Source: a virus | Taxonomy: Duplodnaviria; Heunggongvirae; Uroviricota; Caudoviricetes | Virus record (IMG/VR): IMGVR_UViG_2519899780_000005 | Length of the DNA: 47,693 nt | Reading direction: 5' to 3' (one strand) | In this document: piece by piece, positions 1 through 34,656 of the stretch | Position numbering within the stretch: the stretch's first letter is position 1 | Layout of the letters: every line of letters starts with the position of its first letter | Notes under the pieces: generated by a model | Seen by the model: the letters and a program-made list of their open reading frames with translations, nothing else | Databases searched by the model: none | Told to the model about the DNA's origin: nothing | Translations under genes and position numbers: made by a program

Positions 1-282
1 TCAATAAATCCCATCATTGCGATCAACCTCATCCTTAACCATTGATGCGAGCAGTTCTTCCAGTTTCTGCGCTGACAGCTTTACCTGGTGATCTTCAGCA
101 TCTTCCCGGGCTATTGTGGTTCGCGCAGTGGCTGATTTTGCTGACATCACCACAGGGGGCAGACGGACCATTGAACCATGGCCTCCGGAACAAATAAGGG
201 CAAAAATAACAACCACTATCGAAAGCTCACAAACTAACCGCAGCACGTTCCTGCATACGACGTGTCTGCGGCATAATCCCAA
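1..282 (-). CDS. Hypothetical small protein; a more likely start is the internal ATG near 147 (48 aa, MSAKSATARTT...)
   Basis: Complete ORF with stop at positions 1-3; weak ribosome-binding site; no recognisable family. Confidence 0.2.
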   Translation of the reverse strand: MGLCRRHVVCRNVLRLVCELSIVVVIFALICSGGHGSMVRLPPVVMSAKSATARTTIAREDAEDHQVKLSAQKLEELLASMVKDEVDRNDGIY

Positions 283-450
283 TGATTACTCCCTGACAGG
301 ATTTGCAGGCCACTCAATATCAGGTACAGTTGATGTATCAACACGATTCAACAATACCCGATATTTATTCCATGCCTCCAGCAACGATCTTTCTTCCTCC
401 GTTGCGATTTCCAGATCTACAGCATCCTGCAGTGGCGCAATATACTCACT
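236..450. repeat. Direct repeat copy A (~215 bp, ~88% identical to 1286..1500), covering the tfa 3' end and a downstream inverted repeat
   Basis: By-eye alignment of 236-450 with 1286-1500; the two copies bracket the methyltransferase gene. Confidence 0.7.
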
Positions 451-555
451 GAATTCCTGGATGTAGAACTGTGTGGTGACGGTCTTCCAGCCATTCGGCT
501 CCTGCTGTATCGAAGCATACCAGGCTATTTCAATATCGCTATGCTGCAGCAGCAT
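286..555 (-). CDS. Tail fibre assembly protein C-terminal domain, short chimeric ORF (89 aa)
   Basis: C-terminal ~55 aa nearly identical to the full tfa at 1335..1919 (…[39 protein letters not shown]); ATG preceded by AAGGGG. Confidence 0.55.
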
Positions 556-582
556 TTAACCCCTTGTAATTCATCGCCATAA

Positions 583-611
583 TTGATTTAATTCACAAAT
601 AAAACTATAAC
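583..611 (+). promoter_or_regulatory. Putative sigma70 promoter for the methyltransferase moron (TTGATT, 17 bp spacer, TATAAC)
   Basis: Near-consensus -35/-10 hexamers with 17-bp spacer immediately upstream of the ORF. Confidence 0.4.
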
Positions 612-1280
612 ATGGTGAAATCAATGAAAAAAAACACAGATGATGGGGCTAAAATTTACACACCACTTACCCTAAAGCTTTATGACTGGTGGGTTTTGGG
701 AGTATCAAATCGGCTTGCATGGGGATGTCCTACAAAGGAACACCTTCTTCCACACTTTCTGGAACATGTAGGTAACAACCATCTGGATATTGGTGTTGGA
801 ACTGGGTTTTACCTTACTCACGTACCTGAGAGTAGTCTGATATCTTTAATGGATTTGAACGAAGCTAGCCTGAACGCGGCATCTACAAGGGCTGGGGAAT
901 CAAAAATTAAACATAAAATTAGCCATGATGTTTTTGAACCTTATCCCGCGGCGTTACATGGTCAATTTGATTCCATTTCCATGTTTTACCTTCTTCACTG
1001 CCTGCCTGGAAATATATCTACAAAAAGCTGTGTAATACGCAATGCGGCGCAGGCCTTAACTGACGATGGAACTCTATACGGAGCCACAATTCTTGGCGAT
1101 GGAGTTGTGCACAATAGCTTCGGTCAAAAACTGATGCGCATTTACAATCAGAAAGGCATCTTTTCAAACACAAAAGATTCCGAAGAAGGCTTAACACATA
1201 TACTCTCAGAGCATTTCGAGAATGTTAAAACCAAGGTTCAAGGTACTGTAGTAATGTTTTCCGCTTCAGGGAAAAAATAG
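612..1280 (+). CDS. Class I SAM-dependent methyltransferase (moron); translation may begin at the ATG near 624
   Basis: Glycine-rich SAM-binding motif I (HLDIGVGTGFY) in the 222-aa ORF; opposite strand to the tail genes; own promoter. Confidence 0.75.
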   Translation: MVKSMKKNTDDGAKIYTPLTLKLYDWWVLGVSNRLAWGCPTKEHLLPHFLEHVGNNHLDIGVGTGFYLTHVPESSLISLMDLNEASLNAASTRAGESKIKHKISHDVFEPYPAALHGQFDSISMFYLLHCLPGNISTKSCVIRNAAQALTDDGTLYGATILGDGVVHNSFGQKLMRIYNQKGIFSNTKDSEEGLTHILSEHFENVKTKVQGTVVMFSASGKK

Positions 1281-1285
1281 CATCC

Positions 1286-1500
1286 AACCGCAGCACGTTC
1301 TTGCTTAAGACGTGCTGCGGCATAATCCCAATGATTACTCCCTGACAGGATTTGCAGGCCACTCAATATCAGGTGCAGTTGATGTATCAACACGGTTCAG
1401 CAACACCCGATACTTTTTCCAGGCTTCCAGCAATGAGGTTTCTTCCTCCGTTGCAATTTCCAGATCTGCAGCATCCTGAAGCGGCGCAATATGCTCACTG
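1286..1500. repeat. Direct repeat copy B (partner of 236..450)
   Basis: See copy A; includes perfect 11-bp inverted repeat ccgcagcacgt...acgtgctgcgg at ~1286-1318. Confidence 0.7.
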
Positions 1501-1919
1501 GCTACCTGCATCAGGTTGTTTTTTGTTTCTTCCGCCTCCCGGATCCGGAACAGTTTTTCTGCTTCCGTATCCTTCACCCAGGCTGTGCCGTTCCACTTCT
1601 GAAACTCCCCTTCCGGCGATAACCAGGTAACATTTTCCGGTAACGGACCGAGTTCAGAAATAAATAACTCGTCCCCTGACGCTACGTCATAAACCGTTTT
1701 ACCCCGATGGTCTTCAACGAGATGCCACGATGCCTCATCACTGTTGAAAACAGCCACAAAGCCAGCAGGAATATCTGGTGGTGCAATATCGGTACTGTTT
1801 GCTGGCAGACCTGTATGAGGCGGAATATATGCGTCACCTTCACCAATAAATTCATTAGTTCCGGCCAGCAGATTATAAATTTTTATGGTCCGTGCTTGTT
1901 CACTCATTCTGAATGCCAT
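1335..1919 (-). CDS. tfa: Tail fibre assembly protein
   Basis: 194-aa ORF immediately downstream of the side tail fibre gene; recalled similarity to lambda Tfa. Confidence 0.85.
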
Positions 1920-4900
1920 TATGCAAGCCTCACAATATAGTTAAATGCGATGTTTTTGACGGTGTTTTCCGCGTTACCAGCAGCGTTAACGGTGATGGTG
2001 TGTCCATGTGAACCAATCGCAACGGAGTGCGTATGCGCACCAATACCTACAGTATGTGCATGTGCGCCAGAACTTGCTGCAGTACCAGACAGCGAGTGGG
2101 TATGAGCACCTGCTGACTGTGTCTGAATACGTTGATAATACGATCTATAGGAAGAAGTCTCCGGGCTTACTTGATACTGTGAATCATGGACATAAGTGAA
2201 CCCACCGCCATCATAAAATGCTAACGCAGAACCGCCGCCTCCTGGCCAACGAATACCATTACCATGAGTATGATCACCGGCAGACCCCGTAGAGCCACTC
2301 AGACTGTGCGTATGCGCCCCGGTGTTATTCGTGGATTTAGTGCCGTAATCAAACGACGATGTGGTTTTCGTCCCCAAATCCGTACTGGATGCGCTGGCGC
2401 TGTGGGTGTGCGATTTAATGCCGTCCTGTTCCTGAGACAATACGGCTCGATCACTGGCGGGCTTGCCCTTAATCGTCCAGCCACGCATATCAGGAATAAC
2501 GCCTGACGGATAAGCCACTGCAAGTTTCGGGTAAGCAGATTTGTCAAAAGTCTGCCCCTGCATCAGGGCATAACCAGACGGAACGGTATCTGATGGCCAC
2601 GGGATTGGTGCGCCAACTGGGTAGCTTTCTGGTGGAAGATTTTTCGAGGTATAAACTTCTGCCCAGTCTTCCTCAAAACCATAACCGTCTCTTGAAGAAC
2701 GGTAGAACAGACCACGATTTCTGTAATGCGCCTTCATCTGCAGGGTCCGGCAACTTCCGACTCCGGTATAGAAGTTAACCAGAATATAGCTGTCGCCAGA
2801 GCGGGTGACATTGTAAGCGCCTGATTCGGCATTCCAGGGAACGGCTCCATCCGAATCCGCATAAGCCCCCGTCGAACGTCGGGCAAATGCACCAATATTT
2901 TCCGGCGTGAGGTTAATATCCGCCGAGCCATCAAACTTAACACCGTTAATTTTTGGGTCTGCCGCAAGTTTCGTCGCGGTATCGGCGTTCCCCTTCAGTG
3001 CCCCGGTGATCCCATCAGTAACAGACAACGGACCTGAAATAGTCCCTCCAGTTGTTGGCAGCGCTCCAATATCTGATGGTGTAGGTTTCTGATGTGAGCT
3101 ATACATCGTATAAACAACACCATCGGTAACGCTGGAAGGCTTACTCGCTGAATATGTTAGCGAGGTATAAATAGAAACTGACGCATTTGTAGTACAATCC
3201 CAATGGATATTTACACTCGTCGCATAATTGCCAATCTCAACGTAAATATCATATATATCGCCGGATGTGTTGATCCAGGCGAAATTCGTTAATCCGACGG
3301 CTGTACGCTTCCACAAAGCTCCGGTAACCCCTTTGGGGTTTCCATTGCCTGCTCGTAGAACCAGTTCAGATATACCTGCCTGTTGAGGTGCCCCCACGTT
3401 AAATCCAGCGCCACCAATCAATGCGATGTAAACGATGGAACTCGCTTGTGGCATGGTAACCGTTGCCAGTTTGAACCACCCTGCCCCGCCAGAGAAAGAG
3501 ATCGTTACTGAATTTAAAGTGCCAATATCTTTCGGTGTTAATGTTATATCCGCAGTCAGTGCTTTCCCGTTAACTTTTCGGTTAGATGGTACCCTGCCAT
3601 TCGCATTGTCATTCGCTGCTTTAACTGCCTTCGGTGTCGCGGCAAGCGTTTCAGATGTGCTGTTGGTCGCACTGCTGAGCTGTACTATCCCCTTTTTCGT
3701 CGTACTTGCATCCTCAAGCGCCACGGCGGATGCAATATCCTCTGCCCGTTTTGCCGCTGTCTCGGCGCGCGTTGCCGCGGATTCCGCCGTACTTTTGCTC
3801 TGTGCTGCCGCCGTCGCACTGCCAGCAGCCTCTGTTGCCTTCGTGGATGCCGTCGCGGCGCTGCCCTTCGCTGCTGACGCCTGTCTGGTCGCCTCATCTT
3901 TTGAAGCAGACGCAGATGATGCCGATGACGCCGCCGAACTGGCGGACGATGCGGCAGCCGTTTTTGAGGATTCTGCGCTGGTTTCCGACGCTTTCGCGTT
4001 CGTCTCGGATGTCTTCGCTGCGGAAGCAGACCTTGCTGCTGCACTGGCCTGTTCAGTGGCTTTGCCAGCCTTCGTTGTGGCTGTTGAAGCGGATGATGCG
4101 GCGCTTTCTGCCGATTTTCCGGCGGCGGTGGCACTGGCTGAGGCCTGCCCGGCACTTGTTGACGCGGCACTGGCAGATGATGCAGCCGCTGTTTTTGAGC
4201 CTGCCGCAGCTGAGGCACTCTGTCCCGCTGCCGTTTCAGAAGACCTGGCGTTCGTCTCGGACGTCTTTGCCGCCTTCGCGGAATTTCCTGCCGCCGTTGC
4301 CGAGGAAGCTGCACTACTGGCACTTGATGATGCATTCGTTTCTGAAGATTTCGCTGCCTCTTTTGAGGCCGCCGCACCCCGTGCCGAGGTGGCAGCTTCT
4401 GACGCCTTCGTGGTCGCTGTGGATGCAGAAGTGGCTGCCGATTTTTGTGATGCTGCGGCATTCGTTTCTGACGTTTTCGCGGCACTGGCGCTGGTAGCTG
4501 CCGCGCTTTTTGATGACTCTGCAGCAGCAGCACTTTTTGCTGCTTCACGGGCCTTTGTCGATGCCGTTCCTGCGCTGGAAGACGCTGACTGAGCCGACGA
4601 CGCGGCCTGTCCGGCTGACGTGCTGGCGGCACGTGCTGAGGCTGCAGCATCGGTTGCATGAGTTGCCGCCTCGCTGGCTGATGCACTGGCATCGCTGGCT
4701 GATTTTTTCGCGGCTGCCGTATTCTGTGCAACCGCGGAGGCGTTACGTGACACCTCTTCCACCATCTGCTCAAAGCGGCGCAGTGCCTCCGGTCGGACAT
4801 CATCCTCCGTCATGGCACCGAGAAAATCATTCAGCGTACCTGGTCTGGAACCTTCATAGACGGTAATGGTCCCGGCATGTGAAGGCGGAAAACCTTCAAC

Positions 4901-5089
4901 CAGCAGGGTGACGCTGTACTGACCATGCTCAACATCCATGCTGTAACGTCCGGCTTCATCCGGATTTTCAGAGGCCACCGTGTTCACCACCACCGTGCTG
5001 CTGGTTCGTCTGGCCTTCAGCACAATGGTGCAGTTCTGTACTGGTTTTCCTGTGCCATCTTTAAGCACGCCAGAAATTTTTACTGTCAT
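1919..5089 (-). CDS. stf: Side tail fibre protein with long Ala/Ser/Thr-rich repeat region
   Basis: N-terminus [26 protein letters not shown]... matches recalled lambda Stf N-terminus; position after lom; C-terminal His/Gly-rich fibre tip. Confidence 0.9.
3650..4700 (-). repeat. Coding tandem repeats (Ala/Ser/Thr-rich KTSETNA...SASAA units) inside stf
   Basis: Reiterated peptide motifs in the translation; these generate the spurious overlapping ORFs on both strands. Confidence 0.6.
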
Positions 5090-5100
5090 ACTTTTCCACC

Positions 5101-5137
5101 AATAAAAAAAGCCCGCAGCAGTGACGCCACGGGCTTC
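5101..5137 (-). terminator. Putative rho-independent terminator downstream of lom
   Basis: Minus-strand GC stem (gcccg...cgggc) followed by a T-run (plus strand: aaaaaaagcccgcagcagtgacgccacgggc). Confidence 0.4.
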
Positions 5138-5240
5138 AGGACAGTGTAACTTTACGTTTCCTCAAACGCAGTTCACCCCATAAAGTGGATGAACCTGCGT
5201 ATCATAACAATATTTACAGAAGATAAATCGGCGTCTGTTG

Positions 5241-33307: not shown

Positions 33308-33384
33308 TGGCGCGCTGTACTGGATTCGAACCAGTGACCGATTGCTTAGAAGGCAATTGCTCTGTCCGGCTGAGCTAACAACGC
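33308..33384 (-). tRNA. tRNA-Arg (anticodon UCU)
   Basis: Cloverleaf folds by hand: acceptor GCGTTGT/ACAGCGC, anticodon loop CUUCUAA, T-arm GGTTCGAATCC, 3' CCA; probably argO or argN of Stx-phage nomenclature. Confidence 0.85.
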
Positions 33385-33397
33385 ATGATGCAGATAA

Positions 33398-33474
33398 TGG
33401 ACCGCCATCGGGGACTTGAACCCCGCGCAGCCAGCTTCGAAGGCTGGCGCTCTATCCCGATGAGCTAATGGCGG
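33398..33474 (-). tRNA. tRNA-Arg (anticodon UCG)
   Basis: Anticodon stem CCAGC/GCTGG with loop CUUCGAA, T-arm GGTTCAAGTCC, 3' CCA. Confidence 0.8.
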
Positions 33475-33481
33475 TATGTGA

Positions 33482-33557
33482 TGGTGGCCCTTGCTGGATT
33501 TGAACCAGCGACCTGGCGATTATGAGTCGCTCGCTCTCACCACTGAGCTAAAGGGCC
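33482..33557 (-). tRNA. ileZ: tRNA-Ile2 / Met-like (anticodon CAU)
   Basis: GGCCCTTTAGCTCAGTGGT…ACTCATAATCG…GGTTCAAATCC…CCA; CAU anticodon in an Ile2-like body. Confidence 0.8.
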
Positions 33558-33606: not shown

Positions 33607-34656
33607 TCAAACGATTAAATCCTGAACTTCCCTGACTGTCTGCTCAAAACGTCCGGTCTCCAGTTCAACGCCAATCGCACGACGCCCGAGCGCCAGTGCA
33701 GCTTTTACCGTTGAACCTGAGCCCATAAAAAAATCTGCAACCAGGTCACCCGGACGACTGCTTGCGCTGATTATCTGCTGCAGCATTTCTGCCGGTTTTT
33801 CGCACGGATGTTTCCCGGGATAGAACTGCACCGGTTTATGTGTCCACACATCCGTGTACGGCACCTGCGCCGTCACACCAAAATACCGCCGCAGATGCTT
33901 ATATTCACTCTGCAGCTCCACATACTGCCGGTTCAGTGACGTATACGTATCCACCAGCTGGTGGTGGGGCTTTTCCAGTTCACCGCGCTGATGTTTCTCT
34001 TCTGCCACCCGGGCAAACAGCGACTGTAATTTCAGATAATCGCTTTCGTTCGGTAGCTGCCACTGACTGGCACTGAACCAGTGCGACACCATGTTTTTCT
34101 TTCCTGTGGCATCTGCAATCTGTTTTGCCGTTATCCCCAGGGCCGCGCGCGCATCACGAAAGTAAGAAATCAGCGGGGCCATCACATGCTGTTTCAGTGC
34201 ACTGCCCTTCGCCGCATACCCGGCATCTTTCGGACGATACGGCCCCTGATAATGTTCCGCGAACAGAATGCGCTCTGTGGCGGGGAAATACGCCCGCAGG
34301 CTTTCCTTGTTGCATCCGTTCCAGCGTCCGGACGGCTTCGCCCAGATAATATGGTTCAGCACACTGAAGCGTTCACGCATCATGATTTCGATATCAGATG
34401 CCAGGCGATGACCACAGAACAGGTAAAGACTTCCGACAGGTTTCAGCACCCGCCAGAACTGCGCCAGACACTGGTCCAGCCACTTCAGGTAATCATCGTC
34501 GCCCTTCCACTGGTTATCCCAGCCCTCAGGCTTCACTTTAAAGTACGGTGGGTCCGTGACTATCAGGTCAACAGAATTTTCGGGTAACGACCGGATAAAT
34601 TCCAGGCAGTCGGCGTTGATTAACTCACAACTGGATATTTTTACAGTATTAAGCAT
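33607..34656 (-). CDS. Orphan DNA methyltransferase (N6-adenine/N4-cytosine class, DPPY motif)
   Basis: …VDLIVTDPPYF… motif IV near the N-terminus; 349 aa; no adjacent restriction enzyme. Confidence 0.8.
   Translation of the reverse strand: MLNTVKISSCELINADCLEFIRSLPENSVDLIVTDPPYFKVKPEGWDNQWKGDDDYLKWLDQCLAQFWRVLKPVGSLYLFCGHRLASDIEIMMRERFSVLNHIIWAKPSGRWNGCNKESLRAYFPATERILFAEHYQGPYRPKDAGYAAKGSALKQHVMAPLISYFRDARAALGITAKQIADATGKKNMVSHWFSASQWQLPNESDYLKLQSLFARVAEEKHQRGELEKPHHQLVDTYTSLNRQYVELQSEYKHLRRYFGVTAQVPYTDVWTHKPVQFYPGKHPCEKPAEMLQQIISASSRPGDLVADFFMGSGSTVKAALALGRRAIGVELETGRFEQTVREVQDLIV

Follow-up and report, generated by a model that had tools for sequence, protein, structure and literature searches.

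Lambdoid prophages carry morons, or cargo genes, downstream of their tail-fiber genes, as illustrated by lom and bor of lambda and by the exchangeable effector loci of O157 prophages. The closest described counterpart of the locus examined here lies in the DLP12 cryptic prophage of Escherichia coli K-12 MG1655, where ybcY has a partial tfa, a tail fiber assembly gene, on either side. The K-12 gene order tfaD, ybcY has been given in a paper, and ybcY/tfaX has been described as a divergent pair (PMC3946193). The DNA under study is the virus record IMGVR_UViG_2519899780_000005, a stretch of 47,693 nucleotides (nt) that we call the window, and the element in question is a gene near its left end for a class I S-adenosylmethionine (SAM)-dependent methyltransferase, bracketed by direct repeats of the 3′ end of tfa. 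We put at about 80% the probability that the region forms the cargo end of a lambda-like prophage occupying ompW, in which ybcY sits as a moron between the terminator hairpin of a working tfa and an older, 5′-truncated tfa, and in which the repeats recombine. Within this reading, the anatomy, the identity of ybcY, its polymorphism in the population and its fold class are matters of observation, and what we infer is the expression of the enzyme in the lysogen, its small-molecule or lipid substrate and the direction of structural change (gain or loss).

Identity of ybcY and anatomy of the repeats

By its DNA and protein matches, the methyltransferase gene is ybcY, a known but uncharacterized cargo gene of lambda-like E. 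coli prophages. Its DNA is 98.9% identical to the K-12 ybcY locus, and its product matches PHROG 2132 (function unknown) over the entire profile (residues 5-222 against positions 1-218 of 218, E = 4 × 10−157). Positions 309-1773 of the window are colinear with K-12 DLP12 tfaD'-ybcY-tfaX at 96.7% identity. We found ybcY DNA, at 95-100% identity, in 3,835 of 5,426 complete E. coli genomes (~70%), and the 2-kb layout in 1,112 genomes. Viable lambdoid phages, including ev243, 2G7b, PhiR26_1 and Kati, encode an intact YbcY that is 98-99% identical, in the same place, between the tail-fiber genes and cargo (ompT, appY or an alpha/beta hydrolase gene). In the window, too, ybcY occupies the tail-fiber/cargo end of a lambdoid prophage, next to tfa fragments. 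A sequence-only reading of this DNA had presented the methyltransferase as a moron, and would have given way if the gene proved to be a known conserved one of the tail-fiber region; ybcY of DLP12-type prophages is such a gene, widespread in E. coli and assigned to a PHROG. The layout itself, a cargo gene between a working tfa and an older tfa remnant, is on these comparisons ordinary, widespread and already known.

Moron-like traits are present. ybcY has a GC content of 41%, against 47-54% in the flanking tfa copies and stf (the side tail fiber gene), and it stands between elements that are adjacent in related prophages lacking it, whose empty form at the same ompW site runs directly from tfa to the hairpin and a DUF4376 gene remnant. 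The features of the region, in window coordinates, are as follows.

624-1280, plus strand: ybcY-family class I SAM-dependent methyltransferase, 218 amino acids (aa); annotated from ATG 612 (612-1280) as 222 aa; assigned from Pfam, PHROG 2132 and an AlphaFold2 model
556-623, no strand assigned: AT-rich divergent spacer, 68 bp, 28% GC, with promoter candidates and GGTGA (614-618)
236-462, no strand assigned: left repeat copy, tfa C-terminal coding block and hairpin; 89.4% identical to 1286-1511
1286-1511, no strand assigned: right repeat copy, 3′ end of the functional tfa and hairpin; from repeat search and alignment
238-271, no strand assigned: left hairpin (L type) and, past it on the minus strand, a U-rich tail; native tfa terminator; −18.8 and −24.1 kcal/mol
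1288-1320, no strand assigned: right hairpin (R type), common to the convergent ybcY and tfa; −23.9 (plus) and −28.5 (minus) kcal/mol, z = −5.7 and −5.5
286-555, minus strand: tfa' (tfaX-like), an 89-aa open reading frame (ORF), 5′-truncated older tfa copy; C-terminal part of Caudo_TAP, PHROG 2341, Shine-Dalgarno AAGGGG
1335-1919, minus strand: tfa, lambda-type tail fiber assembly protein, 194 aa, full length; Caudo_TAP, PHROG 105
1-189, minus strand: DUF4376-type tail-fiber gene remnant (pseudogene); RefSeq notes an internal stop in identical DNA, and PHROG 7703 and 1141 (tail fiber) match the last 47 codons
1919-5089, minus strand: stf, side tail fiber gene, 1056 aa; from the ORF list, and annotated by RefSeq as 'prophage tail fiber N-terminal domain-containing protein' in near-identical DNA

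Global alignment of the direct repeats spans 227 columns with 203 matches and one 1-bp gap, an identity close to, and not much lower than, the earlier estimate of a ~215-bp segment present twice in direct orientation at ~88%. A repeat search of the window returned the same copies as two blocks separated by the 1-bp indel, 266-462 versus 1315-1511 (197 nt, 90%) and 236-264 versus 1286-1314 (29 nt, 90%). Identity between the copies drops fast past 462/1511, and chance is ruled out by a BLAST E value of ~1 × 10−83 against the matching copy in other records. Both copies, read on the minus strand, comprise the final 59 codons of a tfa frame, its stop codon and a GC-rich hairpin, in line with the earlier description of a tfa C-terminal coding region plus an inverted repeat. 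Strong hairpins fold in both copies, all four folds lying far beyond shuffled controls, and a scan placed a terminator-like site on the minus strand at 255-239, within the left hairpin. The ybcY stop codon (1278-1280) lies only 5 nt from the repeat boundary and 7 nt from the stem base, so the 3′ end of ybcY takes the place of the right hairpin's minus-strand U-tract. The repeats are, as aligned here, the conserved Tfa C-terminal coding block plus the terminator stem.

The two tfa frames differ in completeness. The right tfa matches Caudo_TAP (PF02413) over positions 1-130 of 131 (Pfam, E = 2 × 10−44). The 89-aa ORF matches only positions 75-130 of that profile and is missing the N-terminal half, so the left copy is the C-terminal part of a different, 5′-truncated tfa. 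It does match PHROG 2341 along its full length (1-88 of 88, E = 2 × 10−60), and AAGGGG lies 4 nt before its ATG. Beyond the repeat, the two tfa lineages are no longer homologous.

Filled and empty forms of the ompW prophage end

Over its first 2 kb the window matches the chromosomes of E. coli O104:H4 and related strains at 100% identity. In strain 2011C-3493 the matching DNA forms the end of a lambda-like prophage that has inserted into ompW, adjoining yciE, and RefSeq gives the prophage order as integrase ... J, lom, stf, tfa, methyltransferase, partial tfa, partial DUF4376 gene and ompW fragment. Judged from this match, the window is a nearly whole prophage, with the ybcY/tfa region at its tail-fiber/attachment-site end.

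Searching with an artificial sequence from which one repeat copy and ybcY had been removed, we found the empty form (stf-tfa-hairpin-DUF4376') in NMBU-W13E19; it occupies the identical ompW site and has both the same DUF4376 remnant and an unbroken tfa of 585 nt. Around 20 empty genomes matched the 427-bp junction query at full coverage, compared with 864 genomes carrying the matching filled junction (left flank, left copy and tfa'). The unit missing from the empty forms measures 1,049 bp, and those examined all keep an intact 585-nt tfa. We then scored, in seven empty forms, the 24 sites that distinguish the two window copies. All seven carry an L-type hairpin, R-type coding sequence at site 326 and mostly R-type sequence farther on. 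In every one the change of type falls between sites 265 and 326, a 60-bp block (266-325) identical in both copies and the longest such block. The tfa alleles of the empty forms differ from one another, each corresponding to the right copy found in a different filled form. In K-12 and Kati the left copy is a mosaic, R-type at 346-376 and L-type from 385 onward. On the alignments, these junction, allele and mosaic patterns are the expected product of homologous exchange and gene conversion within the Tfa block.

We propose the following course of events. The Tfa C-terminal block may serve as a recombination site in lambdoid tail-fiber/cargo swaps because it is common to otherwise different tfa genes, and the second, left tfa copy would be debris of such a module exchange. 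The repeats would still interact, leaving gene-conversion-like mosaics between the copies, and unequal crossover within 266-325 would add or remove the 1,049-bp unit, comprising one repeat copy and ybcY, with tfa intact either way. Intramolecular deletion would be the simplest route to the empty form. One of the empty forms, a DUF4376'-hairpin-tfa end without ybcY in E. coli rl0044 (locus L021, 1291-2235), lies at another chromosomal site, between ompN and uspF. This occurrence suggests that such a prophage end travels between integration modules, and it also means that the empty architecture could be ancestral.

The bracket in the window is, on comparison with related loci, one state of a much-reshuffled region and not a fixed property of ybcY. 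On the left, homology of K-12 and Kati to the window stops at 309, and the left ORF is interrupted by a single internal stop in K-12 and by two in Kati. Its C-terminus is replaced in ev243 and PhiR26_1, where homology ends at window position 331. The D8-type DLP12 remnant lacks the left copy entirely; in it, 244 bp separate ompT from ybcY. On the right, the partner of ybcY is a full tfa in the window and in PhiR26_1 and a 170-bp tfa fragment in ev243, and the DNA between ybcY and tfa holds an invertase-containing insert in Kati and a yciGFE-like insert with a catalase gene in O157:H7. The earlier picture of a methyltransferase bracketed by repeats is thus true of the window without being intrinsic to the gene, as the absent left copy (D8), the extra cargo (O157:H7, Kati) and the truncated right copy (ev243) illustrate. 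In E. coli O157:H7 FRIK2533 (locus L028, 4219-6432) the insert consists of yciG-, yciF- and yciE-like genes and a manganese catalase gene. Chromosomal yciGFE are the immediate neighbors of the ompW attachment site used by the window's prophage, and the FRIK2533 insert hints at a past capture of flanking host DNA.

Three other accounts of the repeats need to be weighed. The 89-aa left copy had been described as a short chimeric tfa-like ORF with its own ribosome-binding site; the ORF and its AAGGGG are indeed present, and one could take it for a functional short Tfa, a free-standing C-terminal chaperone domain divergent from ybcY that folds the fibers of its own or of co-resident prophages. Its intactness in the window, its good Shine-Dalgarno sequence, its end-to-end match to PHROG 2341 and codon differences from the right copy that are synonymous in 10 cases and non-synonymous in 8 would all suit such a role, although the synonymous changes could predate the truncation. 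However, the ORF is interrupted, altered at its C-terminus or absent in the lineages listed above, PGAP annotates it as a pseudogene, and it is without the variable N-terminal half of Tfa, which, according to a structural study of phage Mu Tfa, reportedly binds the fiber. Because the ORF decays in other lineages, we read it as most likely a decaying remnant and not a gene, and we hold a working short Tfa to be very unlikely. It is more improbable still that the repeat encodes a small RNA, either Rfam IS009 or a CssrB-like 3′ fragment, and was duplicated for the sake of that RNA and not of tfa. The IS009 model (RF02111) does match the minus strand at 1378-1576 with 225 bits, above the gathering threshold of 117, and at 329-548 with 113.8 bits, just below it; a weak CssrB match (1289-1353, minus strand) covers the tfa stop codon and hairpin. 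Yet both IS009 matches lie inside tfa frames and run well past the repeat into copy-specific sequence, and the Caudo_TAP coding sequence accounts for their conservation. We found no expression data for an IS009 small RNA. Pieces of tfa that had formerly passed for intergenic DNA probably supplied the sequences behind the model, and Rfam IS009 appears to describe tfa coding sequence instead of an RNA gene.

The least credible account, which we would all but dismiss, makes the repeats the sites of a programmed site-specific system (Gin/Cin/Pin-like) that switches the cassette on and off. Tail-fiber regions of Mu, P1 and e14 are switched by invertases, and Kati carries a DNA invertase gene between ybcY and tfa. 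The repeats, however, are direct and not inverted, they consist of 227 bp of coding homology and not of short crossover sites, no invertase is annotated in the window's prophage, and the empty-form junction falls in the longest identical block, as homologous recombination predicts.

Several observations concern neighboring genes. The DUF4376' remnant between the tfa remnant and the ompW fragment forms a second, outermost layer of tail-fiber debris, and some sister prophages (loci L014, L018 and L030) have ash and rha genes inserted beyond it. The stf product is 1056 aa long in the window versus 944 aa in O104:H4 2011C-3493. Its Ala/Ser-rich middle gives rise to long spurious ORFs in other frames (3435-4592, plus; 3685-4803, minus; 3706-4497, plus), and Tandem Repeats Finder reported no array in window positions 1-5200, which include this middle part. 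Further away, a cluster of three tRNA genes at 33308-33557 (minus strand) comprises Arg-TCT, Arg-TCG and one gene with a CAT anticodon, called tRNA-Met by ARAGORN and tRNA-Ile by RefSeq. The cluster adjoins a separate gene for a 349-aa DNA methyltransferase (33607-34656, minus strand), which the prophage possesses besides ybcY.

Predicted expression and chemistry of YbcY

The true start of ybcY is probably ATG 624, and the annotated ATG 612 wrong. A gene running from 624 to 1280 is indicated because YbcY homologs from other genera are mostly 218 aa long, the PHROG 2132 profile starts at residue 5 of the annotated protein, a Shine-Dalgarno GGTGA (614-618) precedes ATG 624, and strain D8 has ACG in place of ATG 612 and is given the 218-aa form by RefSeq. 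ATG 624 is kept in every locus compared except that of K-12, whose ybcY is a pseudogene with a frameshift and, as a second lesion, ATA in place of this ATG.

A promoter likely lies within the 68-bp divergent spacer, which is almost invariant across eight loci. The sequence-only reading had pointed to a near-consensus sigma-70 promoter, and its hexamers TTGATT (583-588) and TATAAC (606-611), spaced by 17 nt, are present in the window; a consensus scan leaves them unlisted because the −10 hexamer ends in C. In a genomic SELEX (systematic evolution of ligands by exponential enrichment) study with RpoD holoenzyme, a peak at the K-12 ybcY/tfaX spacer is reported, and TTGATT-17-TATAAC is listed for ybcY together with an H-NS site (PMC3946193); the peak reflects in vitro RNA polymerase binding in K-12, not a mapped start. 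The proposed promoter thus agrees with a published one but has an awkward geometry, as TATAAC abuts the annotated ATG 612 and the predicted transcript would start at ~617-620, cutting into GGTGA. The consensus scan listed a second candidate, TTAACC-16-CATAAT (556-583), with a predicted leader of ~33 nt; in strain D8 its −10 reads TATAAT. We envisage ybcY as an independently transcribed, AT-rich moron for a small class I SAM-dependent methyltransferase; the lysogen would produce the enzyme from a sigma-70 promoter located within 556-611, which H-NS would hold at a low level.

Assignment to the class I SAM-dependent methyltransferases, as proposed earlier, is well founded. Pfam Methyltransf_12, Methyltransf_23, Methyltransf_25 and Methyltransf_11 all score above their cut-offs, and the protein shows motif I, rich in glycine (DIGVGTG), with an acidic residue following strand 2. 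G57, G61 and D77 never vary across the aligned family (218-aa numbering), and D55 and G59 hardly do. An AlphaFold2 model built on a 70-sequence alignment (predicted local distance difference test 92.8, predicted template modeling score 0.89) shows the standard class I fold of alternating strands and helices with the lid helices first. According to this model, YbcY amounts to a catalytic domain of 218 aa that has a lid helix (YDWWVL...SN...W) at its N-terminus and carries no extra domain for binding RNA or DNA.

Foldseek against the Protein Data Bank ranked a bacterial phosphatidylethanolamine N-methyltransferase first, followed by juvenile hormone acid methyltransferase (JHAMT), phosphoethanolamine methyltransferases, NodS, CysG and polyketide C-methyltransferases. 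These matches have template modeling (TM) scores of 0.55-0.69 at 13-21% identity; PmtA (8ys9) reaches a TM score of 0.62-0.65 at 15-17% identity. YbcY does not belong to the PmtA family proper (NF045882), scoring 15.7 bits against a cut-off of 390, and the NCBIfam models for PmtA, RquA and CpaM gave ~16-18 bits against cut-offs of 175-390. A sequence search of solved structures was uninformative (best JHAMT and UbiG, E ~1 × 10−3), and a viral structure library returned generic methyltransferases only. The family comprises 1,325 representatives at E ≤ 1 × 10−3 in a 50%-identity library. The only fusion partners found in relatives were cytochrome P450 and an RCC1 domain; these are weak hints, at most, of small-molecule chemistry. 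Fold searches place YbcY tentatively among the small-molecule/lipid methyltransferases, with no close characterized relative, and our best guess for the substrate is a small molecule or lipid.

It is unlikely that the enzyme instead acts on nucleic acid, be it DNA, for anti-restriction or epigenetic marking of phage or host, or host tRNA or rRNA. No N6A, N4C or C5 DNA methyltransferase family is found in the Pfam and NCBIfam matches or among the top fold matches, so the earlier remark that its motifs do not resemble DNA methyltransferases survives fold-based classification. Furthermore, the same prophage already has its separate DNA methyltransferase gene, YbcY is a bare catalytic domain with a lid helix, and relatives are fused to cytochrome P450. 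A bolder proposal holds that YbcY is an overlooked lysogenic-conversion enzyme that methylates a host envelope lipid or other small molecule, a trait which the flanking tfa repeats would make gainable or losable by one crossover, with the phage unharmed. The envelope-lipid idea rests on the best Foldseek match and on the presence of the gene in most E. coli genomes, and, with a dead copy in K-12, the activity may have been overlooked; we nevertheless think it quite unlikely to be correct in full.

Beyond E. coli, homologs from Enterobacter, Yersinia and Erwinia (56-68% identity) stand alone on the chromosome, away from any phage genes, and no neighbor gene recurs among YbcY homologs in six other genera. 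A Salmonella enterica homolog (67% identity; loci L024 and L025, 5001-6316) is flanked by a prophage integrase and a DUF4376 tail gene, with a ricin-B lectin gene next in line, which is a cargo position of the same type in another genus. One from Testudinibacter sp. (57% identity; locus L026, 5001-6589) lies at the end of an AlpA-type island, right beside an ompW homolog. A methyltransferase-hydrolase pairing was considered and dropped, as the alpha/beta hydrolase of ev243 and PhiR26_1, the Erwinia carboxylesterase and the Enterobacter hydrolase are mutually unrelated. PADLOC assigned no defense family, its only match being mad2 (E = 0.0096, 12.8 bits).

Against the reading of the region as a recombining cargo end with an expressed moron, the following points should be considered. 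The allele patterns of the seven empty and six filled forms fit both loss and gain of the unit, and the single junction interval common to all empty forms also fits one ancestral architecture. The published hexamers would yield a nearly leaderless mRNA from which the Shine-Dalgarno sequence of ATG 624 is cut off, and the plus-strand hairpin 3′ of the ybcY stop is without a U-tract, so termination of ybcY there is only putative. In the literature we found no transcription start site, protein or activity data for intact ybcY, and K-12 studies are uninformative on its function because the K-12 copy is a pseudogene. The papers found on ybcY/tfaX offer gene lists, a null phenotype for a K-12 mutant when Hha is overexpressed, and studies of the tfaX/appY region, with no function reported; that region is absent from the window's prophage, and the only phenotype test found used the K-12 pseudogene.

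Comparison with known systems

As a discovery, the locus carries little weight, considering that annotations of the gene and its tfa-flanked layout exist for thousands of genomes, and that the named K-12 loci tfaD, ybcY and tfaX are their counterparts. Two corrections are modestly useful: the annotated ybcY start at 612 is probably wrong, and Rfam IS009 appears to model tfa coding sequence. With K-12 DLP12 the window shares the gene, the order, the orientation and the divergent spacer with TTGATT-17-TATAAC. In contrast to DLP12, where ybcY is dead, tfaD is 5′-truncated and tfaX, interrupted by an internal stop, is missing the final codons and the hairpin, the window has ybcY and tfa intact, and its left copy keeps a complete 3′ end, the hairpin and the DUF4376 remnant. 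The integration sites differ as well, ompW for the window's prophage and argU for DLP12. It is also of modest use to know that intact ybcY is among the commonest uncharacterized cargo genes of E. coli prophages, and that laboratory K-12 cannot report on it.

With small-molecule and lipid methyltransferases of solved structure (PmtA 8ys9, JHAMT 7ec0, PfPMT 3uj7, RebM 3bus, BelI 9fce, CysG 9g0k and SgvM 8ftr), the modeled YbcY shares the seven-stranded Rossmann-like fold, the size and the N-terminal lid helix, although identities of only 12-21%, TM scores of 0.55-0.69 and a flat Z ranking leave it outside all of these families. Like the lambdoid morons, ybcY is an extra gene of deviating composition with a putative promoter region of its own, located at the tail-fiber/attachment-site end between genes that are adjacent in relatives. 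Unlike them, it encodes neither an envelope protein nor a secreted effector but a cytoplasmic methyltransferase, and it is flanked by a duplicated piece of the neighboring structural gene. That piece is in line with the modular Tfa proteins, as the window repeat ends where the conserved Tfa C-terminal part ends. What matters in the window, however, would be the DNA homology that the conserved block offers for recombination, any chaperone role of the truncated copy being only putative. The Tfa C-terminal block may therefore be seen as portable homology for cargo gain, loss and conversion, which the filled and empty forms at ompW illustrate cleanly.

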